From NCBI GenBank assembly GCA_965223505.1, contig CBDCWP010000021.1, forward strand, positions 416,001 to 480,000: 64,000 nt of DNA, given 5' to 3'. The notes beneath the pieces are model-generated. The model was not told the DNA's origin, did no database searches, and was given only the letters and a program-made list of their open reading frames with translations. Shown here piece after piece: positions 3,233 to 40,143 of the stretch. Positions within the stretch are counted from its first letter, which is position 1; each line of letters begins with the position of its first letter. A program made the position numbers and the translations under genes. The stretch comes from Planctomycetota bacterium (GTDB lineage: Bacteria; Planctomycetota; PLA2; JAEUHO01).

Positions 3233-4807
3233 TCAGGAAAGAGAACACGAAACGGTGTCCCCGACCGCAGCGACAAGTGCCTCGACCACCTCGTCGTGGC
3301 CCTCCCGGCGCGCGTCGTCGACGGGCGTGGCCCCCCATCGGTCGACCGGAGCCAGCGCCGCGCCGCGCCGAATGAAGAACTGGACGACGTGGAGGTGCCC
3401 TTCGGAGGCGGCGAGGTGCAGGGGCGTACGACCGTCGTAGTCGGCTGCGTCGAGGCTCGCGCCGGACGCCAGGAGGCTCCGCAAGCCGGCGAGGTCACCT
3501 TCGCTCGCAGCCCAGCAAAGGTCCACGATGCCCGTGCTCTGCGAGGAGCGTTTGGCACGGCGCGGATCCGTCTTCTCGGCGAGTGCGCCGACCAGGTTGT
3601 CGAACTGATGAAAGTTGTAGGTACTCACGAGCTCGCGGCAGTACTCGACACCACGAACGCTGTTGCCATGACGGTCGAGCAGGGGTGACCAGACACACGT
3701 GCCGAGGACGTTCGGGACAACGACCATGACCGCCCCGGACACGCCACTCTTTGCGGGAAGGCCGACGGCGAACGCCCACGCGCCCGAGTAGTCATACATG
3801 CCGCACGTCGACATCAGCGAGAGGCACTTCTGCACCGTCCCGGGCTGCAGGACCCGCTCCCCTGTCGTGGGACAGACACCGCCGTTGGCGAGCGTCGCCG
3901 CGAGGATGGACAGGCCTTCGGCGGTCATCTCCATCGAGCAGCACTGGAAGTAGAACTCCAGCGTCTCGACGAGGTCGGCATCGTCGGGAAAGCCCTTGTT
4001 CTCGCGAATCATGTGTCCGAGCGCGAAGTTGCGATCGGCGGTGCCCCGCTCGGAGAGATAGGTCGGATTGCTGAAACCGGGCTTGCGCCCGCCGGCCAGC
4101 CGCCGATAGCAGTCCATGACGTGGTCGAAGCGGTCGGCCGCCGACCGGTCCTTCAGGATCATCGCGGAGCTCACGATCGCGCCCGCGTTGATCATCGGAT
4201 TGTGGGGCCGGCCGTGCACGTTCAACTCGAGTTCGTTGAAGCTCGCTCCGCTCGGTTCGCATCCGATGAACTCGTGGACACGATCCGCACCGTGTTCCTC
4301 GAGCGCGAGGCAGTAATTGACGGGCTTGCAGCAGGACTGCACGCAGAACTCCACGTCGGCGTCGCCGAGCGCGAGCCGCTGCCCGTCAACCGTGCAGACA
4401 CCGACGCCGAATTGCTCGGGATCGACCCGCGCGAGCTGCGGGATGTAGTCCGCAACGGCGCCGTCGCGGTTCGCCCGGACGCGGCCGAAGATCGCGTCGA
4501 GCTCCGTCGAGAACGCATCGAACTCGGGGATGACGAGTCGTCCCTGCAAGGCCTTTTCGACGAGCAGTGCCGCGGGCTGTACGGCGCGATGAAACGCGTC
4601 GTAGTCGAGCGGCGGCTCGACGGGCTCGTTCAAGACCTGGTAGACGCTCGCGAGTCGAGGGTCGTCGGCGCGCAGACCGGAGCGCTCGAGGGCGTCCCGA
4701 AGAACGCCCCTCGAGACCGTCTCCTCCGAGCCGTCTCGGAGCGCGTCGAACAGAGGGCGCACGCGATCTGTCGAGTCGATCACAGCTCGTCGATCAGATG
4801 CGGACAT
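3233..4807 (-). CDS. glsA: glutaminase with N-terminal helical extension and C-terminal ankyrin repeats
   Basis: GAVADYIPQLA, catalytic QSCCKP (SxxK), HNPMINAGAI, GMYDYSG, PAKSGVSG; ankyrin DYDGRTPLHLAASEGH. Confidence 0.95.
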   Translation of the reverse strand: MSASDRRAVIDSTDRVRPLFDALRDGSEETVSRGVLRDALERSGLRADDPRLASVYQVLNEPVEPPLDYDAFHRAVQPAALLVEKALQGRLVIPEFDAFSTELDAIFGRVRANRDGAVADYIPQLARVDPEQFGVGVCTVDGQRLALGDADVEFCVQSCCKPVNYCLALEEHGADRVHEFIGCEPSGASFNELELNVHGRPHNPMINAGAIVSSAMILKDRSAADRFDHVMDCYRRLAGGRKPGFSNPTYLSERGTADRNFALGHMIRENKGFPDDADLVETLEFYFQCCSMEMTAEGLSILAATLANGGVCPTTGERVLQPGTVQKCLSLMSTCGMYDYSGAWAFAVGLPAKSGVSGAVMVVVPNVLGTCVWSPLLDRHGNSVRGVEYCRELVSTYNFHQFDNLVGALAEKTDPRRAKRSSQSTGIVDLCWAASEGDLAGLRSLLASGASLDAADYDGRTPLHLAASEGHLHVVQFFIRRGAALAPVDRWGATPVDDARREGHDEVVEALVAAVGDTVSCSLS

Positions 4808-6095
4808 CTTGCACCTCCCAAAGCTCGGTCTGCGCGACTGCGGCTTCGGTAATGAGCTCTTCGGGGGCGTAGGCGCGCTCGGAGTGCTCGGTGAGATCGA
4901 TGCCGACCTCCTCGGCGTACGGGGAGGGCCGCAGCTTCATGAAGCGCCGCATCGCCAGCAGGATGCCCGCGGTGCCGAGCGCCGCCAGCAGCGCCGCTGC
5001 CAGGATCCCGACGATCTGGGCACCCAGGAGCGAGGCATCACCGGCAAGCAGGCCGTCCGCTCCGTCCGGATTGACGGCGGTCGTCGCGAACACGCCCGTC
5101 AGGAGCGCTCCACTGAGCCCGCCGAGACCGTGGCAGGCAAACACGTCGAGCGTGTCGTCCACCCGAGCGCGCTTCAGGAGCGCGCACGCAACGTAGCTGA
5201 CCAGGGTCGCGAGAACGCCGATCGCGATGGCGGCCATCGGCGTGACGAAGCCGGCGGCGGGGGTGATCGCCACCAGGCCGACGACCGCGGCGATGGACGC
5301 GTTGACGGCGGTCGGCTTCTTGTCGCGCAGGAGATCGACGACGACCCACGTCGTCACGGCGGCTGCCGCGGAGAGCATGGTCGTCACGACGGCGAGCGCG
5401 GCGAGTCCGTCGGCAGCCAGCGCGGACCCGGCGTTGAAGCCGAACCACCCGAACCAGAGCAGTCCTGCGCCGAGGACGACGAGCGGCACGTTGTGGGGTT
5501 CGTCCGACGCGGCCAGGTCCCTGGCGTTCCGCCGCTCCTTGCGGCGGGGCCCCAGGATCATCGCGGCCACGAGCGCCGAGACACCGGCGCTGATGTGCAC
5601 GACGGTTCCGCCCGCGAAGTCGAGAGCGCCCAACTCGCCGATCCAGCCGCCGGGGCCCCAGACCCAATGGGCCAACGGCGCATAGACGAGCAGGCTCCAG
5701 AACAGGATGAACAAAACGTAGGCCTTGAACCGCATGCGGCCCACGACGGCGCCGGAGATGAGCGCCGGTGTGATGATGGCGAACATCATTTGGAATGCCA
5801 TGAAGGCCAGGTGCGGAATCGTCTCTGCGTAGGCCTCATTCGGCTCCATGCCGACCCCGTCCAGGCCGAGGAAGGCAAAGCCGCCGATCAGGGCGTTGCC
5901 CGGCGCGAACGACAGCGAGTAGCCGATCGTGGCCCAGAGGAGAGCGATCACGCCGAGGGCGATGAAGCTCATCTTGATGGTGTTGATGACGTTGCGCTCG
6001 CGAACGAGGCCGCCGTAGAAGAAAGCGAGTCCGGGCGTCATGAGCATCACGAGTGCGACGCTGATGAGGCTCCATGCGGTGTCTCCGGAGTTCAT
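4794..6095 (-). CDS. amt: ammonium transporter (Amt family)
   Basis: MTPGLAFFYGG, FQMMFAIITPAL, DFAGGTVVHI, WFGWFGFNAGS, DDTLDVFACHG. Confidence 0.97.
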   Translation of the reverse strand: MNSGDTAWSLISVALVMLMTPGLAFFYGGLVRERNVINTIKMSFIALGVIALLWATIGYSLSFAPGNALIGGFAFLGLDGVGMEPNEAYAETIPHLAFMAFQMMFAIITPALISGAVVGRMRFKAYVLFILFWSLLVYAPLAHWVWGPGGWIGELGALDFAGGTVVHISAGVSALVAAMILGPRRKERRNARDLAASDEPHNVPLVVLGAGLLWFGWFGFNAGSALAADGLAALAVVTTMLSAAAAVTTWVVVDLLRDKKPTAVNASIAAVVGLVAITPAAGFVTPMAAIAIGVLATLVSYVACALLKRARVDDTLDVFACHGLGGLSGALLTGVFATTAVNPDGADGLLAGDASLLGAQIVGILAAALLAALGTAGILLAMRRFMKLRPSPYAEEVGIDLTEHSERAYAPEELITEAAVAQTELWEVQDVRI

Positions 6096-6200: not shown

Positions 6201-7304
6201 CTACGCCACCTGCGCAGCAGGCAGCTCGAGGAGGCCGCGAAACTCGTCCTCGTCGGTGCACACCGAGCGCATGAGCTCGCTGCATACCTCGTAGGGATTG
6301 CTGTTCGCACCCGGTCGTCGGTCTTCGAGGTAGCCGTGGCCGGCCTCGCGCACCTGGCGCGGTACGCGCACTGATGCGCCGCGATCGGCGACGCCGTGCC
6401 GGAACTGGTTGATGTCACAGGTCTCGTGAAGACCCGTGAGACGCTTCTCGAGACCCGCGCCGTAACGGGCGATGTGGCGCTCGTGCCTCTGCTTGAGCCG
6501 CCCCACGGCCGTCCAGATCGCATCCAGGCCGCCTTCGGGATCGCGCGTCGCGTTGGTCGACCAGTTCGTGTGCATGCCGGCGCCGTTCCAGTCACCCTGC
6601 ATGGGCTTGTTGTCGTAGCTGACGACGACGTCCGACTCGGCCGCGATGCGCTCGAGAAGGTACCGGGCGATCCAAACGTGGTCGGAGACTTCCAGCGGAT
6701 CACCACCTTCCCCTTCGAAGCCGCGGTAGCCCATTTGGAACTCCCACTGGCCGGGCATGACCTCCGCGTTCACACCGAACAGAAGGAGTCCGGCCTCGAG
6801 GCATGCCCGGGCATGGGTCTCGACGATTTCGCGGCCATACACGGCATCGGCGCCGACGCCGCAGTAGTACGGTCCCTGCGGAGCCGGGAAGCCGTCTTCC
6901 GGGAAGCCCAGCGGTCGTCCGGCGCTGAGCAGCGTGTACTCCTGTTCGAAGCCCACGTAGGGATCGAACGCGCCGCCGTTGGCGGCACAGAGCGCTCGCA
7001 GCTCGGCGCGCTGGTTGGTCGCGTGGGGCCGGCCGTCCGCCTGGAACACCTCGCACAGCACGAGGATGTTCGCGCCGCCGCGGATGGGATCGCGAACGAC
7101 GCGTACCGGCTCGAGGATCAGGTCGGAGTCCGCGCCGTCCGCCTGGTTCGTCGAGGAGCCGTCGAAGCTCCACGAAGGCAGGGAGTCCGGCGCAGGCAGC
7201 TCGGCGCCAGCGACCTGGAGAATACGAGTCTTGGACCGCAGCCTCTGGGTGGGCGAAGCGCCGTCGAGCCAGAGGTATTCGGCGAGGAGGGTGTGGGCTG
7301 ACAT
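6201..7304 (-). CDS. glnII: glutamine synthetase type II
   Basis: AEYLWLDG, RSKTR, WSFDGSST, PQGPYYCGVG, NAEVMPGQWEFQ, DWNGAGMHTN, RLTGLHET, YLEDRRP. ATG at 7304 with AAGGA RBS. Confidence 0.95.
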   Translation of the reverse strand: MSAHTLLAEYLWLDGASPTQRLRSKTRILQVAGAELPAPDSLPSWSFDGSSTNQADGADSDLILEPVRVVRDPIRGGANILVLCEVFQADGRPHATNQRAELRALCAANGGAFDPYVGFEQEYTLLSAGRPLGFPEDGFPAPQGPYYCGVGADAVYGREIVETHARACLEAGLLLFGVNAEVMPGQWEFQMGYRGFEGEGGDPLEVSDHVWIARYLLERIAAESDVVVSYDNKPMQGDWNGAGMHTNWSTNATRDPEGGLDAIWTAVGRLKQRHERHIARYGAGLEKRLTGLHETCDINQFRHGVADRGASVRVPRQVREAGHGYLEDRRPGANSNPYEVCSELMRSVCTDEDEFRGLLELPAAQVA

Positions 7305-7489
7305 GGGTATTTCCTTCGATAGGGGTGGTTGAGCGGGGGTCGCCCCGCGCTTGTCCGTCGAAGGGGAGAACACGAATGAGGCGCAGCGACCGCAATCGGG
7401 ATGCGAGACGGCCCGGTGTTCGAAATGCATGCGGTGAGAAGGAACCGTTCGTGTTCTCGCTGACGGGATCGGTGGGCTCGGAGAACGCC

Positions 7490-7942
7490 ATGCAAGACGA
7501 CGATCTGCTGACCTCGTTCGAGCGCGCCGAGATCCCCCGGTCGGCTTGGAATCACAAGATGCACGTTCGTGTGGCTTGGTGCTTGATCCAGCGCTACGGC
7601 TACCGTGCCGGACTTGCGCGCATGCGAAAGGGCATCACGGCGCTCAACCGGGCGCATGGCGTCGCTTCGACGCCCACGGGTGGATTTCATGAGACGATTA
7701 CGGTCGCGTTCTTCCGGGTCATTCACGCCGTGTGTGATCGGGACACGCCGGCCCCGGACTCGCTGAGCTTCTGTGACAAACACCTCCACGCACTGGGTCG
7801 TCCGTCCCTGCTGCGCCACTACAGTCCTCAGCACTTGCGGTCGCCAGGTGCGCGCGTCAACTTCGCCGAGCCCGACCGGCTGCCGCTGCCGATCACCGTC
7901 GGCCCGAAGCGCGGCCGCAGGGTCGCCACACCCGACCTGTAG
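7490..7942 (+). CDS. conserved hypothetical protein (His-rich WNHxxH...FHETIT motif)
   Basis: ATG at 7490 after GGAG. Globular-looking 150-aa protein with conserved-looking His motifs. Confidence 0.7.
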   Translation: MQDDDLLTSFERAEIPRSAWNHKMHVRVAWCLIQRYGYRAGLARMRKGITALNRAHGVASTPTGGFHETITVAFFRVIHAVCDRDTPAPDSLSFCDKHLHALGRPSLLRHYSPQHLRSPGARVNFAEPDRLPLPITVGPKRGRRVATPDL

Positions 7943-8211
7943 CCGCGACCGGACGGAAGCGCGACGCCTCGTCGACGGCCGTTGCATGACATCCGGCACT
8001 CGGCGTCGCGTCACGCGGGGGCGCGCACGCTCGTTCAGGAGCGACCCGGGACGGTTTCGTGTCAACGTTCCCGTCTTGTTGCAGAATCGCTGACCGAGCG
8101 AGTCGTCGGGTGGGCCCGGGATCCCTAGTACGCCCCCCTTGCTGCGACGCGAGCGATGAGCGAAAACGCCGGCCTCCGTACCGGGCGTTGGCCCGTTGCT
8201 AGACTGCCCGT

Positions 8212-11133
8212 ATGTGGAAGCGATTGGCGCTCCTCGCAGTGCTCATCTCCGTGGGGACACCGGCCCTCGCACGGCCGGACTCGCAGGAGCTCCTGAAGCG
8301 ATTGCTCGAAGCCCATGAGAGCGGCGACGTCGAAACCATGCAGCGGATCGTGCGGGATCCCCGCTTCGATGCGTGGCTCCTCGTCGAAGGGCTCTACGAG
8401 CGCGGCCACGCCGAGGCTGCGACCGCGTGTGCGCAGGCGACGGGCTGGCCCAAGTTGGTCGCGTACGCCAAGTGGCGCGCGGAGCATCCGCCGTTGCGCG
8501 AGGTGATCGAGGCGTTGAACGCGGTCGCCGAGCCGGACGCCGACCGCAAGGCCTGGTTGGACAAGTACCAGTCCCTTTCCGAACAGGAAGGGCAGGGCAT
8601 CCGGTTCTTCCGCTTCCTGGGCCGGGTCGGGCAGTCGCTCCACATCCTCGAGCGCTTCGACGAAGCCATCCCCATGTACGAGCGGGCGGCACGGGGCGCC
8701 CTCGATCTCGGTTGGCATGCGAGCGCAATCCGGATGTACGGGTTCGCGGGCAATGCAAGCCGCACCGCGAAGCGCTACGACGACTTCGAGCGATTGACGG
8801 CCCTGCGCGTCGAGCTGGCCGCGGACTCCGGACAGCACGCCCTGCACTTCCAGGTGCTGCGCCAGTCTTCCTATGAGTACAAGCGCATGGGACGTCCGCG
8901 CGACGCCCGCGCGTACTCGAGTGAAGCGGTGAAGATCGCCAAGTCGCCGTCCGAGTTGCGTGCCGCGCTGCGCGACCTCGCCTTCGTGGAGATCGATCTG
9001 GGCGAGACCCACGCCGCGGTCCGTTCGTTGACCCGGCTCCGCGAGCTCGAGGTGCAGGCCGATCGCCCGCTGAACGTCGCGCAGTGCGATCTGCAGCTCG
9101 CGATCGCCGAGGCCATGCTCGGGCGCTTCGAGCACGTGCTCGGCCGCGTCGCGAGTGCGATCGCCTACTTCGAGGAGCATGGAGACGACAAGAGCCGCTA
9201 CCTCGCGCACATCTCCGCCGGCAAGGCACACCTGATCATGCGCGACAGCAATCGCGCGTTGCATCACGTCGAAGAGGCGCGCAAGGCGATCGGCGGGGCG
9301 CGCGCCATGCAGGACCTCTCGCTCGAGGCCAGCGCGTTGTCCTACCTGGGCCGCATCGAGGAAGCCATTCCGGTCTTCGAGACGACGCTGCGGCTGAAGC
9401 GTTCGGCCAGGCCGGAGCACCGGGTGGCGGCGTACATCAATCTCGCCAACCTGCTTTCCTTCGTCAAACGGCCGCAGGAAGCGGAGTCGTATCTCGCCGA
9501 GGCGCGCAAGCTGCTGCCGGAGGTGAACGACCAGTCTGTCCATGCGCACGCCTACGCCGCCGAGAGCCTGGTGTTCGCCGAGAGCGGGCAGTGGGACCGC
9601 GCGATCGAAGCCGCCACGAAGGCGAGCGGGATCAACGGCGAGATGCTCAACCGGGAGCTCGGTGCCGCGAACGAAGTCATGCTGGCGCGCTGCTGGCTCG
9701 AGAAGGGCGATCCCAAACGGGCGATGGTCCACGCGTCGAACGCGCTGAAGTTCGTGCTCGAGCGATCGGCGGCGCTGCCGGCGCGGCTCGGAGCGCAGTA
9801 CCGATCGTCCCTCCGTAGCGCATTCCAGTACGCGGTGCTCGCGGCGGTTCGCGCGAACAACGAAGCCGACGTGTTCCAATTCGCCGAGCAGGCGGCCGCG
9901 GTCGCGCTTCGCAACCGTCTGGGGGCGCAAGAGGTCGTGCTGTACGCCTTCTCGGACGAGCTGCGAGAACGCGAGCTCGAGTTGCAGGAAGCCGAGACGC
10001 ACGCCATGGCGGCGCTGCGCGCGTCGCTGCAGACGCGCGACGCGACTACCCGCCGAAGCTCACTCGCCGCGGTCGGCAAGGTGCGCGAACAGCTGGACCG
10101 GCATCGTGAGCGGGTGCGCGCGGAGCAGGTCGCCGCCGGCCAGGTCGTCGATCCGGAGGTGGACGACCTCGCTTCGACGCAGGCTCGGCTCGGCAAGGAC
10201 GAAGCTCTCCTCATGTTCGTGCAGGGCGTGCACGAGATCTACGCGTACCGCGTCACGAAGACGGACGCGCAAACGGTTCGTCTCGGCTCCCGCGACGAGA
10301 TCCAAGCCCTGCTCGACGGCCTCGTGCTGGAAGATCCTCATGCGCCGGCGAAAGACATGGTGAGCGAGCTGCGCGAGAAGATCGCGAAGCCGCTCGGTCT
10401 CCCCTCCGTCGTCAAGCGTCTCGTGATCGTGCCGACCGGACGGGTCGCGCACTTGCCTTTCTCCGCGATCTGGCCCGCGCGTTCGATCCGTCTCGCCTCG
10501 TCCGCGACGATCGATCGGCTGCTCAAGACGCGCGACCCCAAGCCCGGCAAGGGCGTGCTCGCGATCGGCGACCCCGAAGGCGCCGACGGACGTCGCTTGC
10601 CGGGCGCGCGTGAAGAAGCGAAGGCGATCGGCGACGAGGTGCTGCTGGGCGCGGATGCGACCGAGGAGCGCCTGGAGAAGGCAATCGCGAGCCGCGAGCG
10701 CTGGCACGCGGTGCACATCGCCTGTCACGCGTTGATCGATCCGAACCACCCCCTTCGTTCCGCCCTGTCGCTCTCGCCCGCGGACAAACGCGACGGCCTT
10801 TGGACCGTGTCGGAGATCCTGCAGGCGTCGGTCTCGACGGATCTCGTCGCGCTCGGCGCGTGCTCGACGGGTCGCGGCAAGACGTTCGACCAGGAAGGCG
10901 CGCTGGGCTTCGTGCAGGCCTTCTTCGTCGCCGGTGCGAAGCGCGTGTTGGTGAGCCTGTGGGACGTGGACGACAAGGCGACGTCGGCTTTGCTCCAGCA
11001 GTTCCACGCGGAGTGGAAGCCGGGCGTGTCTCCGGCGCGTGCGCTCGCAACGGCGCAAGCGAAGATTCGCGAACAGCCGCGCTGGCGTCATCCGGCGTAC
11101 TGGGCGGCCTGGCAGCTGTGGGGGCCCGAGTAG
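8212..11133 (+). CDS. TPR-repeat plus CHAT (caspase-like) domain protein with signal peptide
   Basis: Signal-like MWKRLALLAVLISVGTPALA; TPR repeats; CHAT motifs LVIVPTG, HIACHA, ALGACSTG, SLWDVDD, HPAYWAAW. Confidence 0.9.
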   Translation: MWKRLALLAVLISVGTPALARPDSQELLKRLLEAHESGDVETMQRIVRDPRFDAWLLVEGLYERGHAEAATACAQATGWPKLVAYAKWRAEHPPLREVIEALNAVAEPDADRKAWLDKYQSLSEQEGQGIRFFRFLGRVGQSLHILERFDEAIPMYERAARGALDLGWHASAIRMYGFAGNASRTAKRYDDFERLTALRVELAADSGQHALHFQVLRQSSYEYKRMGRPRDARAYSSEAVKIAKSPSELRAALRDLAFVEIDLGETHAAVRSLTRLRELEVQADRPLNVAQCDLQLAIAEAMLGRFEHVLGRVASAIAYFEEHGDDKSRYLAHISAGKAHLIMRDSNRALHHVEEARKAIGGARAMQDLSLEASALSYLGRIEEAIPVFETTLRLKRSARPEHRVAAYINLANLLSFVKRPQEAESYLAEARKLLPEVNDQSVHAHAYAAESLVFAESGQWDRAIEAATKASGINGEMLNRELGAANEVMLARCWLEKGDPKRAMVHASNALKFVLERSAALPARLGAQYRSSLRSAFQYAVLAAVRANNEADVFQFAEQAAAVALRNRLGAQEVVLYAFSDELRERELELQEAETHAMAALRASLQTRDATTRRSSLAAVGKVREQLDRHRERVRAEQVAAGQVVDPEVDDLASTQARLGKDEALLMFVQGVHEIYAYRVTKTDAQTVRLGSRDEIQALLDGLVLEDPHAPAKDMVSELREKIAKPLGLPSVVKRLVIVPTGRVAHLPFSAIWPARSIRLASSATIDRLLKTRDPKPGKGVLAIGDPEGADGRRLPGAREEAKAIGDEVLLGADATEERLEKAIASRERWHAVHIACHALIDPNHPLRSALSLSPADKRDGLWTVSEILQASVSTDLVALGACSTGRGKTFDQEGALGFVQAFFVAGAKRVLVSLWDVDDKATSALLQQFHAEWKPGVSPARALATAQAKIREQPRWRHPAYWAAWQLWGPE

Positions 11134-33099: not shown

Positions 33100-33219
33100 C
33101 ACAAGCGTGTCCGTGCGAGGGGCCGCCCGGTGGGTTTCGCGGCCCGGCGGCCTCTTTCCGTCTGACCCGGCGGGCCGTTCGCAGTACGCTTGGGCCGAGG
33201 GACCGATCGGGAGGACATC

Positions 33220-33849
33220 GTGCGGATTCTCAGCCTCGTACTCGTCAGCAGCTTCTTCTTGGCCGCCTGCGCCACGACCTCGGGACCGCGCACGCGCGAG
33301 ACGCCGGCCGGGACGGTCGAGCTGTTCAAATTCTTCGAGCAGAAGGGCGACCGGGCCGGCCAGTGGGACATCCTGAGCCCGGACTTCAAGCGCAGGCTCA
33401 GCGACCAGGCCGGCCGTAACGTCGACCTGGCCGACTACGAGTACATTCGCAACGCGTCGCGCAGCGACCCGCGGGTCCGCGCCGCCGAGGAGGCCGTCGG
33501 GACCGTGAGCGTGCAGCGCGTGCGACCGCAAGGGCCGAACCGGGCCGCGGTGACGGTGAACGTGCTCGGCAAGCTCATCGGCAAGAACGCGACGATCGGC
33601 ATGGTGCGCCTGGAGGCGTGGGAGCTCACGACCGTCGACGACCCGGAGCCGTACTGGGGCATCGTCGGCGATCCGCTCATCGGCATCGAGTCGACGGGCG
33701 ACGGAGGCTACGTGGTCTGGACACGTGCGACGCCGAACGGACAGAAGACGCGCATGACGTTCCCCGCTTCGCAGGTGAAGGGCTACCGCTCCGTGTCGAA
33801 GTGGTACGTCGATGACCTGGGCGGGCTCGAAGAGCAGTTCATGCAGTAG
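33220..33849 (+). CDS. lipoprotein, hypothetical
   Basis: GGAGG RBS, GTG start, lipobox LAAC. Confidence 0.75.
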   Translation: MRILSLVLVSSFFLAACATTSGPRTRETPAGTVELFKFFEQKGDRAGQWDILSPDFKRRLSDQAGRNVDLADYEYIRNASRSDPRVRAAEEAVGTVSVQRVRPQGPNRAAVTVNVLGKLIGKNATIGMVRLEAWELTTVDDPEPYWGIVGDPLIGIESTGDGGYVVWTRATPNGQKTRMTFPASQVKGYRSVSKWYVDDLGGLEEQFMQ

Positions 33850-33873: not shown

Positions 33874-34341
33874 CTACGCGTCGTCCCAACGCGGTTCGTC
33901 GTCGATCCAGTCATCGTCCGCGTACTCTTCGTCGTCGTAGTCCTCGTCGTCGTAGAACGCCTGTTCGATCTCCCGCTGGATCCGCGCCTTGTCGCGGATG
34001 GCGACCAGGACGCCCCCGAGGAGCAGGCAGATGCCGCTCCCGACCAAGACCGCGACGTTGGGGCCGCTCGAGCGATAGCCCATGCCGCTGAAGATGCCGG
34101 AGAAAGCGCCGAAGATGCCGATCGCGATCAACGTGGCGCCCGCCGCGCCGGCGGCCGGCGGTGTCGGCGTGGCGCAGCGCACGAGCAGCACGATGCCGTT
34201 GAACACGAGCATCGCGCCGAGGGCCAGCGCGCCCGCCACGATCGTGTCGTCGCCGGAGAGCATGGCCCCGCAGACACCGATGAAGAGCAGGACCCCCGAC
34301 GCCAGGATCAACAGCACGCCGAAGACGATCTTCAGTGCCAT
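33874..34341 (-). CDS. small multi-TM protein with G-x-C-G motif and acidic tail
   Basis: Four hydrophobic segments; LLFIGVCG; FNGIVLLVR shared with the neighbouring gene. Confidence 0.7.
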   Translation of the reverse strand: MALKIVFGVLLILASGVLLFIGVCGAMLSGDDTIVAGALALGAMLVFNGIVLLVRCATPTPPAAGAAGATLIAIGIFGAFSGIFSGMGYRSSGPNVAVLVGSGICLLLGGVLVAIRDKARIQREIEQAFYDDEDYDDEEYADDDWIDDEPRWDDA

Positions 34342-34784
34342 CCGTCCGCTTCCTCCGCCCCGCGGGCACGATCGTAAGCCAAGGGACCGCTACGCGTCCG
34401 TCCTTGTTTCTTCGGTCGAGCCCGCGCGACGCCGTTGCGACGTGAGCCGACGAAACGAGGCGAACGCGGGCGCAAGGAGCGCGACCGACGCGCCGCAGAC
34501 GACCCACACGCCCGATTGCCACTCGGCGAGCGAATAGAGAGGACCCCCGCGTTGGCCGCGAGACTCCCTGCGGCCAACAGCGACCACTCCCATGGTCTGG
34601 GGGAATCGACGAGCCTCGCGCGGAGCAAGAGCGCGATTCCGTTGAACAGACACAGGAGACCCGCGGCGCCGCCGACGGCACCGGCATCCAGGATTCCCGC
34701 GGTGGACCCGCACAGTCCGAGAAGCAGGGGAAACCCGGCGAGGACGATGAGAAGGATGCCCGCCGCCAGCTTGACCGCGTCCAC
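34332..34784 (-). CDS. small membrane protein, paralog of 33874..34341
   Basis: LLLGLCG; FNGIALLLR. The C-terminal part looks non-coding-like and may be degenerate. Confidence 0.55.
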   Translation of the reverse strand: MDAVKLAAGILLIVLAGFPLLLGLCGSTAGILDAGAVGGAAGLLCLFNGIALLLRARLVDSPRPWEWSLLAAGSLAANAGVLSIRSPSGNRACGSSAARRSRSLRPRSPRFVGSRRNGVARARPKKQGRTRSGPLAYDRARGAEEADGWH

Positions 34785-34785
34785 G

Positions 34786-35124
34786 CTACCGCCCCTTTCG
34801 TCCGCCGTACATCAGGATGCAGACGATTAGGATGCCGAGGATGGCGACGCCGCCGATGACCATCACCGAGAGATCCGTTTGCCAGCCGCGCCACGCGATC
34901 GCGCATCCGCCGACGAGGAGCATGACACCCGCCGCGACGAAAAGTAGTCCCGCGGTGTACCCGTGCCATCCCATTCGGATCCACAAGAACGGCGCCAGCA
35001 GGAGCGCGGCGCCGCCGGTGACGTAGAGCGCACCCGGTGTGTCGAGCGCGATGCCGCACGCGAACGCGACGATGCCGGCGATCATGCCGAAGAAGAACTG
35101 CAGCCCGACGGGGGTCTGGTTCAC
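34786..35124 (-). CDS. small four-TM protein with LLVGGC motif
   Basis: Hydrophobic 112-aa ORF co-oriented directly after the radical SAM gene. Confidence 0.65.
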   Translation of the reverse strand: MNQTPVGLQFFFGMIAGIVAFACGIALDTPGALYVTGGAALLLAPFLWIRMGWHGYTAGLLFVAAGVMLLVGGCAIAWRGWQTDLSVMVIGGVAILGILIVCILMYGGRKGR

Positions 35125-35173
35125 TGCGGCCGCCGTTCGTCTGCGCCCACGTTCGCGGTGTGCCCGTCGCTCG

Positions 35174-36589
35174 TCATGCCGGCACGACTCCGCTCGCGTT
35201 CTGAAGCGCGCGCACCTCCTCGAGCCGCCGCTCCTGTGCGGCGTCGCGGTAGAAGATGTTGAACGTGTCGAACGGGATCACGCGCCCGTCCGGATGCACG
35301 ATGTGCACGCAGCTCTTCTTCACCGAACGCACGTCGAGGTTGTACGGGTCCATGAAGTCGACGATCAACACGCGGAAGACGTTGTCGTAGGACAGCTCGC
35401 TCAGCTCGATCTTGGGCAAGCAGCACAGGAGCTGCTGTAGCGAGTCCGCCGACGACTCGGGCGAGTGCGACGTCGAGAAGAGCTCCGTCAGGCGGCCGCG
35501 CAAGTCGACCTGCTCGTAGACGATCGTGCTCTCTTCGCCGCGCAGGAGGATCGTCGGGTCGACCATGCTCGAAAGCGGCAGCACCTTCTCCGGCGTCTTG
35601 AGCGCGTACCCCATCGCGACGCAATCCGGATGGCACGGAACCGGCATCACGTCCTCGGGCTCGAAGAGCGCCGTCTGCGCGAGGATCTGCTGCCGGACCT
35701 CGGAAAGCGTGAGCCGGTCCTTCGCCGGGTCCACACCCTCCAGGCGGCCGGCCGCCTGGATCGGCTGGAACGTGACGCCGCGCACGCAGCGCTGCTTCAG
35801 GGCTTCGTCGATGATCGTCCCGATCTCGTGGTCGTTGACGCCCTTCTTGAGCGTCACCACGAGCGTCGTGGAGAGGTTGAGCTCGTTCAGACGGTCCATG
35901 GTCTGCTCGCGGATGCGCCGAAGGTCCGCGCCGCGAAGGTCGCGCAGCGCGCCCTCCTCGAACGAGTCGAACTGCAGGTAGAGCTCGAACCCCGGCATGT
36001 ACGTCGCGAGCCGCTCGGTGAACTCTCGATCCTCCGCGATCCTGATGCCGTTGGTGTTGACCATGAGGTGCTTGATCGGGCGCGCCTTGGCGGCGTCGAG
36101 GATCTCGAAGAACTGCGGATGGATCGTCGGCTCGCCGCCGCTGATCTGCACCACGTCCGGCTCGCCCTCGTTCGCCACGCAGGCGTCGAGCATGCGCTCG
36201 ATGTGCGCGAGCGAGCGGTGCGAACCGTGATGCGGCGACGACTCCGCGTAGCAGACCGGGCACGTGAGGTTGCAGCGGTCCGTCACCTCGACCAGCGTGA
36301 CGCAACCGTGCTGCTCGTGATCGGTGCAGATGCCGCAGTCGTACGGGCAGCCGAAGCGCGTCTCGGTGTTGAAGCGCTTGGGGAGCTGACCGTGCTTGAG
36401 CGTTCGCCGTGTCCACCGGTGGTACTCGACGTCGGTCGAGACCAGCACCCGCTCGTGCCCGTGCTCGGGGCAACGCTTCAGCATGTAGACGCGGTCGTCG
36501 CGTTCCACGATCTTCGCTTCGACCTTGCGTAGGCACGTGGAGCAGATGCTGTTGGTCAGCTCGAGGAAGAGATCAGGCCGATTCGCCAT
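35174..36589 (-). CDS. radical SAM protein, MJ0619/Tes (GDGT-MAS)-like family
   Basis: N-terminal CxxC...CPEH metal site, GCPYDCGICTDH auxiliary cluster motif, CNLTCPVC radical SAM motif, SGGEPT, C-terminal PCHPDC and KSCVH. Confidence 0.85.
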   Translation of the reverse strand: MANRPDLFLELTNSICSTCLRKVEAKIVERDDRVYMLKRCPEHGHERVLVSTDVEYHRWTRRTLKHGQLPKRFNTETRFGCPYDCGICTDHEQHGCVTLVEVTDRCNLTCPVCYAESSPHHGSHRSLAHIERMLDACVANEGEPDVVQISGGEPTIHPQFFEILDAAKARPIKHLMVNTNGIRIAEDREFTERLATYMPGFELYLQFDSFEEGALRDLRGADLRRIREQTMDRLNELNLSTTLVVTLKKGVNDHEIGTIIDEALKQRCVRGVTFQPIQAAGRLEGVDPAKDRLTLSEVRQQILAQTALFEPEDVMPVPCHPDCVAMGYALKTPEKVLPLSSMVDPTILLRGEESTIVYEQVDLRGRLTELFSTSHSPESSADSLQQLLCCLPKIELSELSYDNVFRVLIVDFMDPYNLDVRSVKKSCVHIVHPDGRVIPFDTFNIFYRDAAQERRLEEVRALQNASGVVPA

Positions 36590-37322
36590 GGCGACTCCCG
36601 GAGGTTCGATCGAGACGGCCGAGGCTTCGCAGAGCGATGACGCAGCCGATCGCGCTCGCGATCTGGATGGCGCTCAGGAAGAGCCACGTGTCGCGGGGCT
36701 TGATGAACTCGATGCAGAATCGATAGGCGGCGTACGCCGCGATGAACGTGCGGAACAGCGCGCCGTTGGGTCGATCCGGATTGCGGCGAGCGAAGAGCAG
36801 GATGCCCAGCCCCACGAGGAAGACGATGTCGTAGATCTGGGTCGGGTGGCGGGCCACGCCGTCGCCGAAGTCGACGCCCCACGGGAGCGACGTTGCGATC
36901 CCGTGCGTCTTGTCTTCGAGTCCCGTCAGGAAGCAGCCGACGCGCCCGATTGCCATCCCCGTGAGCAGCGGGGCGACGCAGGCGTCCCCTGTGGAGTGAC
37001 GGATGCCCATCGTCTTCTTGGCGACCTCGACCCCGATCCATCCGCCGAGCAGCCCGCCGACGATCGTCTTGCCGGTCAGGAGCATCTCCAGGTTCCACTC
37101 GTCGGGGTGCTCGAGGAACGAGAGCGCCTTCGAGCCGAGCAGCGCGCCGACGATCGCGCCCGCCAGGATCCAAACCGTCTGGTCGGGCGGCACGGCCGCG
37201 CGTGCGTAGCGCTTGCGCGTGGCGAGGTACAGCTGGAAGCCGACCCCGTACGCGAGGACCTCGAACACCGGGTGCGGATGCAGCGTCGTTCCGCAGCACT
37301 CGAGCTCGAAGGGGAATTTCAA
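36573..37322 (-). CDS. prolipoprotein diacylglyceryl transferase (Lgt)-family protein
   Basis: GKTIVGGLLGG, IGRVGCFLTG, HPTQIYD, YRFCIEFIK; overlaps the radical SAM start. Confidence 0.85.
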   Translation of the reverse strand: MKFPFELECCGTTLHPHPVFEVLAYGVGFQLYLATRKRYARAAVPPDQTVWILAGAIVGALLGSKALSFLEHPDEWNLEMLLTGKTIVGGLLGGWIGVEVAKKTMGIRHSTGDACVAPLLTGMAIGRVGCFLTGLEDKTHGIATSLPWGVDFGDGVARHPTQIYDIVFLVGLGILLFARRNPDRPNGALFRTFIAAYAAYRFCIEFIKPRDTWLFLSAIQIASAIGCVIALRSLGRLDRTSGSRHGESA

Positions 37323-37497: not shown

Positions 37498-37806
37498 CTA
37501 CTCGCCGCCGAAGCGGTTGCCGACGCGCAGCGGCGCGTCGTTCATCGGCACGTGGCACTGGCGGCACATCGAGCGCTCCTCGTGCGGGGTGACCGGCACG
37601 GCCGAGTCCTTCGCGTGGATCTCACTGTGGCAACGGATGCAGGCCTCTTCCTTGTAGTCCTGGTGCGGCACCATCGGCGGCGCGCCGAACGACGAGACGT
37701 TGGGCGGGGCGGCGTCTTCCGCGCCGAACACCGGCACCAGCAGGAAGCCGACGATCAGAAAGCCGGCGATGACGGCGATGAGCTTGATGCGGTCACTTTG
37801 GTTCAT
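37498..37806 (-). CDS. napB: nitrate reductase diheme cytochrome c subunit, short NapB-like
   Basis: GAPPMVPH, CIRCH, CRQCHVP; directly downstream of napA. Confidence 0.85.
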   Translation of the reverse strand: MNQSDRIKLIAVIAGFLIVGFLLVPVFGAEDAAPPNVSSFGAPPMVPHQDYKEEACIRCHSEIHAKDSAVPVTPHEERSMCRQCHVPMNDAPLRVGNRFGGE

Positions 37807-37815
37807 CGGTCCCTC

Positions 37816-40143
37816 CTAGCTCGCCGCCGCGATCTTGACCGCGCACTTCTTGTAGTCGGGTTGCTTCGACATCGGGTCGATGGCGCCCAGCGTCACACGG
37901 TTGATGAGCCGGTCCTCGTCGAAGAACGGCACGTAGACGTAGCCGCGCGGAACCCGGATGCGCTTGTCGAGCGACACCGGCAACTCCATCTTCCCGCGCC
38001 GCGACGTGATGACGATCCGGGGGCCGCTCTTCTGGATCCCCAGGTCCTTGGCATCGTCGGGGTGCAGCCACGCCAGGGCCTCCGGAACGGTGCGGTGCAG
38101 ATGGGGAACGCGACGCGTCATCGTGCCGGTATGCCAGTGCTCGAGCACGCGACCGGTGCAGAGCCAGAAGGGGTACTCCACGTCAGGCGATTCGGGCGGG
38201 GGTTCGTAGGGCCGTGCCCAGACGACCGCGCGCCCGTTCTTGCGTCCGTAGAACTTGACGCCGTCGGGCGTGTCCTTCGGCACGTAGGGGTCGTACGCGG
38301 CGTTGAATCGCCAGGGCGTCTCCTTGCCGTCGATCACGGGCCAGCGCATGCCGCGCGTCGCCAAGAGCTCCTCGTAGCTCGCGACGTCGTGCTTCGTCCC
38401 GAGCGTGCACTCCCGATATTCGTTGTAGAGGTGCTTCTCGAGATGGTCGTCCCAGGCCTTCGGGAACAGCGTCTCGAACCCCATGCGCCGCGCAACTTCG
38501 ACGTACTGCCAGACGTCGGGCCGCGCGTCGCCGGGCGGGTCGACCAGCTTGGCGAAGTGATGCGTGCGACGCTCGGAGTTGCCGAACATGCCCTCCTTCT
38601 CGACCCACGCGGCCGAGGGCAGGATCAGGTCGGCGGCGGCCGTCGTCTCGGTCGGGTACATGTCCGACACGATGATGAACACGTCGTCGCGGTCCCGCGC
38701 CTCTTCGACGAACCGGTGAAGGTCCGGCATCGATTGGAACGGGTTCGTCGTGTCGACCCAGATCGACTTGATCTTGCCCGCGGCGACCTTGTCCCACATC
38801 GCCTTGGCGTGCGTGAGCGGGCTGTCCTCGGGCGACGGAATCGTGCCGGGCTCGAGGTCCCAGAGCTCCTCCATCTCCTTGCGGTGCTCGGCGTTCATCA
38901 CGACGCGGTCCGACGGGAGCCGGTGCGTGAAGGTGCCGACCTCGCGGCACGTGCCGCAGGCGCTCGGCTGTCCGGTCAACGAGAACGGGCTGTTGCCGGG
39001 CTCGGAGACCTTGCCGGTGAGGAGATGGAGGTTGTGAACGAGGTTGTTGATCCACACACCGCGCGTGTGCTGGTTCATGCCCATCGTCCAGAGCGACGTG
39101 CAGCGCAGCTCCGGGTTCCCATAGTCGGCAGCGAGCTTCTCGATGTTCGCCGCCGAGATGCCGATGTCCGCGGCGACCTTTTCCGGCGCATAGTCGGCGA
39201 GGAAGGCCTCGTAGCCCTCGAGGTCGATGGGGCGGTCCGTCGTTCCGCCGCCGTTCGCCCCGAAGTCGGTCTGCTTGAACTCGAGGTGCGTCTTGACGAA
39301 CGGGGCGTCGATCTTGCCGTCGCGGACGATGCAGTGCGCGATGGCGTTGGCCAGCTTCAGGTCCGTGTGCGGCTCGAAGATGTGCGTCTCGTCGGCGCCT
39401 TCGTCCGTCATGTGCCGGTACGTCTGCAGGCTGATGATGCGCACGTTCGGATCGGCGTGGCGGCGCCGGAGGATCCGGTTGAAGAGCATGGGGTGCATCT
39501 CGGCCATGTTGGCGCCCCACAGGAAGAACCGGTCGGCCGCCTCGAAGTCGTCGTAGCAACCGGGGGGCTCGTCGATGCCGTAGGTCGTGAGATAGCCGAC
39601 GACCGCCGACGCCATGCAGAGGCGCGCATTCGGTTCGATGTTGTTGCTCCGGATGCCGGCCTTCATCCACTTCAGCGCCGCGTAGCCCTCCGGGATGGTC
39701 CACTGGCCCGACCCGAAGAGCGCGACCGCGTCCTTGCCGTGCTCGGCGATGAGGCCCGTCCACCGCTCGGCGATCATGTCGAGGGCTTCGTCCCAGGAAA
39801 TGTCCACGAGCTTGCCGTCCTTGCGCAGCTGCGGCCGGGTCAACCGGTCTTCGCCGTAGAGGACCTGCGCGAGCCCGTAGCCCTTCGTGCAGAGCAGGCC
39901 CTGGTTGACCGGCGCCTTGACGTCGCCGCGAACCGACACGATCTTGCCGTCCTTCACGGCGACCTCCGTGCCGCAACCCGTCCCGCAGAAGCGGCACGGC
40001 GCCTTCGACCAGGTCGCGCCGTCGTCGGACGGCACGGGCGACGAGGGATCGGCGAACAGCCGGTCGACCAGCGAAGGTGCGACGAGCGCGCCTGCGCCGC
40101 CGATGGCCGCGTACTTGATCAGGTCCCGCCGACTCGCATCCAT
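37816..40143 (-). CDS. napA: periplasmic nitrate reductase catalytic subunit
   Basis: Tat SRRDLIK; CRFCGTGC...CTKG [4Fe-4S]; GSGQWT; NARLCMASAV; SLTGQPSACGT; TGRVLEHWHTGTMT; QPDYKKCAV. Confidence 0.95.
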   Translation of the reverse strand: MDASRRDLIKYAAIGGAGALVAPSLVDRLFADPSSPVPSDDGATWSKAPCRFCGTGCGTEVAVKDGKIVSVRGDVKAPVNQGLLCTKGYGLAQVLYGEDRLTRPQLRKDGKLVDISWDEALDMIAERWTGLIAEHGKDAVALFGSGQWTIPEGYAALKWMKAGIRSNNIEPNARLCMASAVVGYLTTYGIDEPPGCYDDFEAADRFFLWGANMAEMHPMLFNRILRRRHADPNVRIISLQTYRHMTDEGADETHIFEPHTDLKLANAIAHCIVRDGKIDAPFVKTHLEFKQTDFGANGGGTTDRPIDLEGYEAFLADYAPEKVAADIGISAANIEKLAADYGNPELRCTSLWTMGMNQHTRGVWINNLVHNLHLLTGKVSEPGNSPFSLTGQPSACGTCREVGTFTHRLPSDRVVMNAEHRKEMEELWDLEPGTIPSPEDSPLTHAKAMWDKVAAGKIKSIWVDTTNPFQSMPDLHRFVEEARDRDDVFIIVSDMYPTETTAAADLILPSAAWVEKEGMFGNSERRTHHFAKLVDPPGDARPDVWQYVEVARRMGFETLFPKAWDDHLEKHLYNEYRECTLGTKHDVASYEELLATRGMRWPVIDGKETPWRFNAAYDPYVPKDTPDGVKFYGRKNGRAVVWARPYEPPPESPDVEYPFWLCTGRVLEHWHTGTMTRRVPHLHRTVPEALAWLHPDDAKDLGIQKSGPRIVITSRRGKMELPVSLDKRIRVPRGYVYVPFFDEDRLINRVTLGAIDPMSKQPDYKKCAVKIAAAS

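Follow-up and report, generated by a model that had tools for sequence, protein, structure and literature searches.

The window analysed here is a stretch of 64,000 nucleotides from a Planctomycetota bacterium (GenBank assembly GCA_965223505.1, contig CBDCWP010000021.1, positions 416,001 to 480,000 of the forward strand), and its positions 33874-37322 hold five closely packed open reading frames (ORFs), all on the minus strand. The first gene of this module (36573-37322, 249 residues) encodes a paralog of Lgt, the enzyme that transfers diacylglyceryl to the lipobox cysteine of lipoproteins, and overlaps by 17 nt the second (35174-36589, 471 residues), which encodes an enzyme of the radical S-adenosylmethionine (SAM) type resembling Tes, also known as GDGT-MAS, the archaeal enzyme that joins lipid tails and produces tetraether or macrocyclic lipids out of archaeol. 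After a gap of 49 nt follow three genes for small membrane proteins, namely sm1 (34786-35124, 112 residues), sm2 (34332-34784, 150 residues), which starts one base past the sm1 stop codon, and sm3 (33874-34341, 155 residues), which overlaps sm2 by 10 nt. An earlier note on this DNA had described such an overlapping enzyme pair with three co-oriented small membrane proteins, and all five ORFs are indeed in place. The window holds one instance of a widespread module, for which no published description was found and which probably makes an unusual lipid-modified membrane protein; a full-text literature search, whose scope ended short of subscription journals and supplements, returned nothing that describes a link between an Lgt-family enzyme and a radical SAM enzyme of the Tes-like kind.

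The product of the first gene matches Pfam PF01790 (LGT) with 91.1 bits against a cut-off of 24.9 and falls under all NCBIfam lgt cut-offs (TIGR00544, 40.3 versus 118.9; NF000778, 45.9 versus 334). Because the genome has a separate canonical lgt at C42:44362-45117, which scores 201 bits in a genome profile search that gives the window copy 90.6 bits, the gene in the window is a paralog and not the housekeeping gene; the earlier note had claimed a dedicated paralog, and its counter-scenario, in which this would be the only lgt of the genome, is thereby removed. A third LGT-family match (C42:137061-137862) lies in two pieces, covering profile positions 1-101 and 104-239 with no ORF spanning both, and may reflect a frameshift or an assembly error in an lgt copy. 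The AlphaFold model of the Lgt-like protein has a predicted local distance difference test score (pLDDT) of 92.6, and its sole match in the PDB at E≤0.001 is E. coli Lgt (5AZB; E 5.2e-8, template modelling (TM) score 0.60), which suggests a common fold. In the passages of Mao et al. 2016 (PMC4728403) that treat the active site, R143, Y235, R239, E243 and R246 form the catalytic centre of Lgt, in a cavity opening to the periplasm, and H103 is essential and is the proposed acceptor-peptide site. Alignments with the E. coli enzyme (5AZB/5AZC) show that the paralog retains equivalents of R143, H196-P197, Y201, Y235, R239 and E243, and thereby the R143/Y235/R239/E243 centre, while R246 is replaced by Lys. 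Its residues R127, Y197 and R201 are invariant in 43/43 paralogs, and E205, the counterpart of E243, is E or D across a 10-sequence alignment.

In other positions, this second, shorter copy departs from housekeeping Lgt. N146 is replaced by Cys130, itself invariant in 43/43 paralogs, H103 aligns with Val88, which turns HGGL into VGGL, and H17, E99, K102 and D113 are further invariant residues new to the Lgt-like paralogs. The protein thus seems, as far as alignments can tell, to have retained the transferase core and altered the acceptor site. A further difference from Lgt is that the paralog is coupled, and elsewhere fused, to a radical SAM enzyme. Fusions of Lgt-like paralogs to other domains also occur (P0004, P0048, P0054, P0060), the partners being a PilS-like six-helix membrane domain (PF25323), a leucine carboxyl methyltransferase (PF04072), DUF3738 in combination with a domain resembling thioredoxin, and a permease domain of the ArsP type.

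The product of the second gene combines PF23545, the HMPTM/MJ0619 zinc ribbon, with PF04055 (Radical_SAM). Its best NCBIfam match is TrsS (NF045646, 326.8 bits, cut-off 490), aligned end to end, its 441 profile positions being covered from 3 to 434 by residues 12-448; Tes (NF045702) scores 277 bits (cut-off 450), and in the best stretch its profile is aligned only over positions 2-318 of 486. Since both scores lie below cut-off, the enzyme counts as neither Tes nor TrsS by curated thresholds. TrsS is said to have been described by Haft and Tolstoy in 2025 as a radical SAM (seleno)protein; the gene in the window has no in-frame TGA, and a candidate selenocysteine in the radical SAM gene of the relative G027 was rejected, the single TGA inside the match being the stop codon. 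Against GDGT-MAS of M. jannaschii (MJ0619, 7TOL), phmmer gives 209 bits. The structural model of the window enzyme (pLDDT 86.8, with low confidence at residues 348-392) matches 7TOM/7TOL at a TM-score of 0.80, which points to the overall four-domain fold of GDGT-MAS/Tes, and the next-best predicted matches are the peptide-modifying radical SAM enzymes SkfB (0.38) and SuiB.

Section 2.1 of PMC13459092 assigns to Tes a rubredoxin-like Fe site, an N-terminal [4Fe-4S] cluster held by three Cys and one His, and a catalytic C-terminal [4Fe-4S] cluster held by three Cys and one Met, and has the enzyme abstract hydrogen from terminal lipid carbons. The Tes-like N-terminal metal and auxiliary-cluster motifs that had been claimed for the window enzyme are present, and all of them are invariant in 77/77 family members: the rubredoxin-like 3Cys+His site (C16, C19, C40, H43) and the N-terminal cluster motif (C81, C85, C88, with H91/H94), together with the CX3CX2C radical SAM motif (C106, C110, C113). 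Unlike these shared elements, the C-terminal domain aligns only partly with that of Tes, and the family has invariant residues of its own, C319, M326, C389 and C390, as well as the near-invariant C427. No membrane helix is predicted in the protein. Its gene is the single PF23545 gene of the genome, and among 14 control genomes PF23545 is found in three archaea only and in none of Thermotoga maritima, Bacillus subtilis and E. coli. Over the stretch 35744-36166 of the radical SAM gene, contigs from four public sequencing runs match at several-fold higher depth and about 90% identity, in the most conserved parts only; the same samples must hence contain a second organism, of higher abundance, with a homolog of this gene.

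A scan of species-representative genomes yields at least 537 relatives of the radical SAM enzyme, and neighbourhoods were taken from the best 80 loci, at 60-71% identity, which span Planctomycetota, Bacillota, Bacteroidota, Acidobacteriota, Verrucomicrobiota, Cyanobacteria and others; records from Paenibacillus, Bacillus, Niabella and Cyanobium contain relatives as well. In 72/80 loci, an Lgt-like gene is located no more than 5 kb from the radical SAM gene, mostly directly upstream and overlapping, a linkage that sets this bacterial enzyme apart from Tes. When the ORFs of all loci are clustered, the only recurrent real families are the radical SAM enzyme (77 loci), the Lgt-like protein (73) and a membrane protein of about 100 residues (16), no further family extending beyond 8 loci. 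Among the longer Lgt-like homologs, 50/59 are single polypeptides of 656-825 residues in which an N-terminal Lgt part is followed by the zinc ribbon and radical SAM parts, so that the radical SAM enzyme would sit at the cytoplasmic C-terminus of the transferase. The conservation of the pair across phyla, which the earlier note had offered as a check of its proposal, is therefore borne out both by neighbourhood and by fusion.

Closer relatives give the same picture. Orthologs of the radical SAM gene occur in 8/40 of them (4/24 from the same family, 2/11 from the same order and 2/5 from elsewhere in the phylum), and the Lgt-like paralog is found on the same contig in 7/8 of these carriers versus 0/32 relatives without the radical SAM gene, these being counts over related, and hence not independent, genomes. 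The odd one out is G030, of the same order, in which the window query detects no Lgt-like gene, whereas in G038, a more distant member of the subfamily (44% identity), the radical SAM gene is again followed by an Lgt-like gene. That the two genes form one unit and belong to one module is well supported. At the G030 locus (L108, contig C112), the radical SAM gene is followed by a 299-residue protein (4467-5366) with an N-terminal helix ending in ...ALIKGCGG, and there is no miniprotein; because its cysteine site scores -9.9 by the matrix introduced below, this protein is probably an ordinary lipoprotein.

Most loci also harbour one to four co-oriented, tandem and fast-diverging small membrane proteins, right behind the radical SAM gene or between the enzyme genes. 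The usual miniprotein has Lys or Arg before its last helix, a helix end of the form [G/A/S]-x-Cys and a short tail, with the consensus L(-4)-x-[GAS](-2)-x-C. A strict form of this Cys-tail motif is present in 70/895 co-oriented neighbouring ORFs versus 9/2608 control ORFs from the same loci, and at least once in 44/77 loci. With a matrix scored by leaving out one locus at a time, 56/170 neighbouring helix-Cys sites pass versus 2/94 control sites, in 40/77 loci, and fewer than 15 residues follow the cysteine in all but one of the 56; inspection of 24 missed loci adds Cys-tail proteins in 7 (L012, L028, L033, L040, L044, L049, L079). Neighbouring small proteins of other genomes thus do have a helix-end cysteine, the lack of which the earlier note had regarded as fatal to its proposal. 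Relatives of the same family or order (G015, G004, G027) have the usual C-terminal Cys-helix type, whereas in the Cyanobium miniprotein (L079) the Cys helix is internal and not terminal. None of six Cys-tail proteins scanned against Pfam and none of five scanned against NCBIfam reaches a family cut-off, and the L029 miniprotein has a sub-threshold NCBIfam match of 17.5 bits against a 300-bit cut-off.

The density of Lys plus Arg per residue is 0.20 ahead of the helix and 0.055 past the cysteine, with at least two such residues ahead in 63/69 proteins; as the positive charges lie mostly before the helix, the latter should run from inside to outside and present its cysteine outward, like a lipobox cysteine. 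Lgt acceptors and miniproteins would then be alike in having a cysteine where a helix that runs from the cytoplasm to the outside, with Lys or Arg ahead of it, reaches its outer end. Unlike Lgt substrates, the presumed acceptors are polytopic miniproteins in which L-x-[GAS]-x-C usually ends the last helix and which have no cleavable signal peptide. The lipobox-like context put forward earlier consequently stands in part: the L-x-[G/A/S]-x-C pattern does resemble a lipobox, but it is one residue out of register and mostly occupies a last helix, not a signal peptide. In three Planctomycetota loci (L065, L067 and L069, at about 7200-8900), the radical SAM gene is followed by a five-helix membrane protein, by tandem proteins of about 120-180 residues (2 in L065, 3 each in L067 and L069) that combine a zinc-ribbon-like CxxC...CxxC motif at the N-terminus with a C-terminal helix closed by Cys, and lastly by the Lgt-like gene. 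The same-family relative G004 (L088 2919-3302) likewise shows an N-terminus of the zinc-ribbon kind.

In the window, the strings LLVGGCA, LLLGLCG and LFIGVCG, each said earlier to carry a cysteine at the end of a hydrophobic helix, are present, and in each the cysteine closes the helix. In sm1, which has four predicted helices, LLVGGCA covers residues 69-75 and Cys74 ends the third helix (34903-34968, residues 53-74, ending in ...YTAGLLFVAAGVMLLVGGC). LLLGLCG covers residues 20-26 of sm2, where Cys25 ends the first transmembrane helix (34710-34775, residues 4-25, VKLAAGILLIVLAGFPLLLGLC), and LFIGVCG covers residues 19-25 of sm3, an acidic-tailed protein for which four helices are predicted, where Cys24 likewise ends the first transmembrane helix (34270-34335, residues 3-24, LKIVFGVLLILASGVLLFIGVC); all three helices are encoded on the minus strand. 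A Cys-anchored matrix with a membrane-helix background, trained on 67 Cys-helix segments, all from other genomes, ranks sm3, sm2 and sm1 at positions 2, 3 and 4 of the 1405 hydrophobic-helix cysteines found in all six frames of the whole genome. When the null is limited to sites with G, A, S or N at -2, the three rank 1-3 of 482, and with positions -1 to -3 left unscored they rank 3-5 of 1405. The top genome-wide match (C13:138287-138682, minus strand), with an anchor ending in ...KPIQSLLIAGGIGLLLGILCRR, lies far from the module and was rejected as a look-alike. It has a soluble-looking body and a C-terminal membrane tail anchor ending in ...LLLGILCRR, presumably of the DUF883/ElaB type.

The small proteins of the window therefore fit the description of co-oriented small membrane proteins with [K/R]-helix-[GAS]-x-Cys beside an Lgt-like/radical SAM pair, and we conclude from their sequences that they would represent a divergent variant of the presumed substrate class. 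In sm1, sm2 and sm3, 38, 125 and 131 residues follow the cysteine, which exceeds the limit of about 15 for the usual type. Because the Cys helix is N-terminal or internal here, it is the helix-plus-Cys unit, and not its C-terminal placement, that appears to be recognised, and the window thus adds that this helix can lie at the start of, or inside, a protein. The proteins sm2 and sm3 are paralogs (tblastn of sm3 on the sm2 region, 33% identity over 96 residues, E 2.8e-12), although the C-terminal 60 residues of sm2 are Arg-rich, unlike sm3. A frameshift in sm2 was considered and rejected, since tblastn with sm3 does not pick up the sequence again in a different frame and no indel is present in the contigs of two samples. 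The whole small-gene region is without differences or indels in contigs of the four public runs, which come from one study with two samples and are possibly the source of the assembly.

Taken together, these data lead us to the reading, to which we assign a probability of roughly 45%, that the locus is an operon-like module in which a dedicated Lgt paralog and a coupled Tes-fold radical SAM enzyme act on small membrane proteins as their private substrates. The cysteine would lie in the outer leaflet, where a helix coming from the cytoplasm ends, in a geometry like that of the lipobox cysteine in a signal peptide, and the Lgt paralog would move a diacylglyceryl-type lipid from a phospholipid onto this outward-facing thiol; geometry and analogy with Lgt are what suggest the cysteine as lipid acceptor. 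The Tes-like enzyme, kept at the cytoplasmic face by the transferase, might then perform radical chemistry on carbons of the lipid tails, a conjectural step that could join carbons by C-C bonds or alter the tails in some other way. A small protein bearing a modified, possibly membrane-spanning, lipid would result.

Several observations weigh against this reading. Lipidation, the lipid donor and the substrate of the radical SAM enzyme are all arrived at by inference. The histidine that is essential in E. coli Lgt, H103, is a valine in the window protein, and only 1/4 of the C-terminal-domain cysteines of 7TOL that fall within the aligned stretch 445-503 is retained (C427). By its shift of one residue in register, the miniprotein motif departs from the canonical lipobox; the strict rule finds no Cys-tail protein in 31/77 loci, and about 17/24 of the loci inspected again have none that could be found, some of these having cut flanks. 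With regard to the window itself, a 30-column hidden Markov model (HMM) of the Cys tail, run over the six-frame genome, misses all three small proteins at E≤10, their matrix scores of 3.8-6.0 lie in the lowest 23% or so of the leave-one-out scores of the family (median 14.4), BLASTP over the 80 loci turns up no relative for any of them, and sm3 is an orphan that recovers only itself from two protein libraries. Their Cys helix is the first (sm2, sm3) or the third (sm1), not the last. Direct chemistry between the radical SAM enzyme and the cysteine would also be geometrically awkward, the enzyme being cytoplasmic and the cysteine across the membrane.

The lack of sequence homology between sm1-sm3 and small proteins from other modules, the negative HMM search, the orphan status of sm3 and the placement of the Cys helix away from the C-terminus, unlike most modules, would also suit a view in which the three have nothing to do with the enzyme pair beside which they stand, being membrane proteins of another kind or, in part, spurious ORFs, and the C-terminal third of sm2 does resemble out-of-frame sequence of high GC content. 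We hold this to be highly improbable: an independently trained matrix places their cysteines at ranks 2-4 of 1405, the genes are tightly packed in one orientation directly behind the radical SAM gene, sm2 and sm3 are paralogs, and Cyanobium L079 has a non-terminal Cys helix as well. In addition, sm1 is conserved in another genome, with one homolog among 5.8 billion clusters (P0003, 59% identity) that retains WHGYTAGLLFVAAG..GGC, the motif thus being intact.

The loci in which no Cys-tail protein is detectable, as well as G030 with its radical SAM gene and no detected Lgt-like partner, fit better with a pathway confined to lipids, in which the pair would make a modified or membrane-spanning lipid, the Lgt-like protein would handle or present the phospholipid, and the small proteins would be accessory subunits, scaffolds or regulators. 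The predicted Tes fold at a TM-score of 0.80 and the N-terminal metal sites in common with Tes speak for the same view, which is somewhat unlikely all the same, since it leaves the invariant, outward-facing cysteine of fast-diverging tandem miniproteins unexplained. The occurrence of the family in Paenibacillus, Bacillus, Niabella and Cyanobium records counts against it too, as these genera are not known for membrane-spanning lipids. A role of bacterial Tes homologs in the synthesis of brGDGTs (glycerol dialkyl glycerol tetraethers of the branched type) is proposed, for 456 such homologs, in the relevant part of Zeng et al. 2022 (PMC8941075). The pertinent sections of Sahonero-Canavesi et al. 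2022 (PMC13159169) report, conversely, no Tes homolog in producers of (iso-)diabolic acid outside the Acidobacteria, and one in just 3/14 of the Acidobacteria that produce iso-diabolic acid. Within these portions of the literature, the only part considered for bacterial Tes homologs since 2022 is a candidate one in brGDGT or membrane-spanning lipid synthesis, an idea that fits their distribution poorly; their linkage with an Lgt paralog and with cysteine miniproteins speaks for protein lipidation instead.

The residues invariant in the radical SAM family raise another alternative. The cysteines of the corresponding region of Tes are mostly replaced, while C319, C389, C390, C427 and M326 are invariant or nearly so, and the best predicted folds after GDGT-MAS belong to the peptide modifiers SkfB and SuiB; the cysteine of the small proteins could accordingly act in the radical step itself or as a carrier, for example in a thioether between Cys sulfur and a lipid carbon, with the Lgt-like protein as a membrane dock. 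Such chemistry would be analogous to the cluster-sulfur adduct of Tes, which, according to section 2.1 of PMC13459092, holds the first substrate radical on a cluster sulfur, or to that of sactisynthases. It appears quite improbable, however, as the charge distribution sets the cysteine on the outer face, away from a cytoplasmic enzyme without membrane helix, and as a mere dock would have no need of the complete catalytic Arg pair that is retained in the Lgt-like protein.

Within the preferred reading of a lipidating module, a more specific version, unlikely in itself, has the miniprotein S-linked through its outer-leaflet cysteine to a glycerolipid whose tails the Tes-like enzyme would join by C-C bonds to tails of the inner leaflet or to each other. 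Were this true, the module would yield a lipid that is anchored to a protein and either spans the membrane or is macrocyclic, a class of molecule so far undescribed, and hundreds of bacterial 'Tes homologs' would gain a function unrelated to brGDGT synthesis. Should the module act as proposed, it would constitute a second, substrate-private branch of bacterial cysteine lipidation. Culturable carriers of the module are available in Paenibacillus, Tumebacillus and Niabella, the small proteins of the Paenibacillus/Tumebacillus type having 82-102 residues.

Two known systems invite comparison. MYXO-CTERM proteins, processed by MrtX, resemble the module in carrying a C-terminal tag with an invariant cysteine by a membrane helix, and the portion of PMC11980579 concerned with this tag proposes that its cysteine is lipidated by an as yet unidentified 'Lgt-like' acyltransferase; the module may thus bear on the enzyme invoked there for C-terminal cysteine tags. 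In the same portion, the MYXO-CTERM cysteine comes before a helix that runs from outside to inside and has an Arg-rich cytoplasmic tail, and the proteins concerned are large and secreted and lose the helix to a CPBP protease. In the module, unlike in MYXO-CTERM, the cysteine comes after a helix that runs from inside to outside and belongs to miniproteins, the unit includes a radical SAM enzyme, and no protease gene recurs beside the Lgt-like/radical SAM pair in the ORF clustering of the loci. The second system, Mss of Thermotoga, is, like the enzyme in the window, a radical SAM enzyme and is proposed to couple lipid tails in the sections of Sahonero-Canavesi et al. devoted to it (PMC13159169), where it is called only remotely related to Tes. 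Mss is set apart here by the failure to find the PF23545 zinc ribbon in the Thermotoga maritima control genome.

As for the surroundings of the module, a scan for promoters and terminators gave no signal above shuffled sequences. Directly upstream, across a gap of 176 nt, lie two ORFs on the minus strand (37498-40143) that would form a periplasmic nitrate reductase pair, the first of 775 residues and, judging by its sequence, putatively NapA-like, and the second encoding a NapB-like cytochrome c of 102 residues, which matches PF03892 at 28.3 bits. Because neither napA nor napB recurs next to the Lgt-like/radical SAM pair elsewhere (0/80 loci, for these as for the other flanking genes of the window), their position beside the module looks incidental. 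On the other side, a convergent ORF of 219 residues (33190-33849, plus strand), which adjoins the module and is without a Pfam or NCBIfam match, has a classical lipoprotein signal (…SSFFLAACATTSG) and is likely a client of the housekeeping Lgt.

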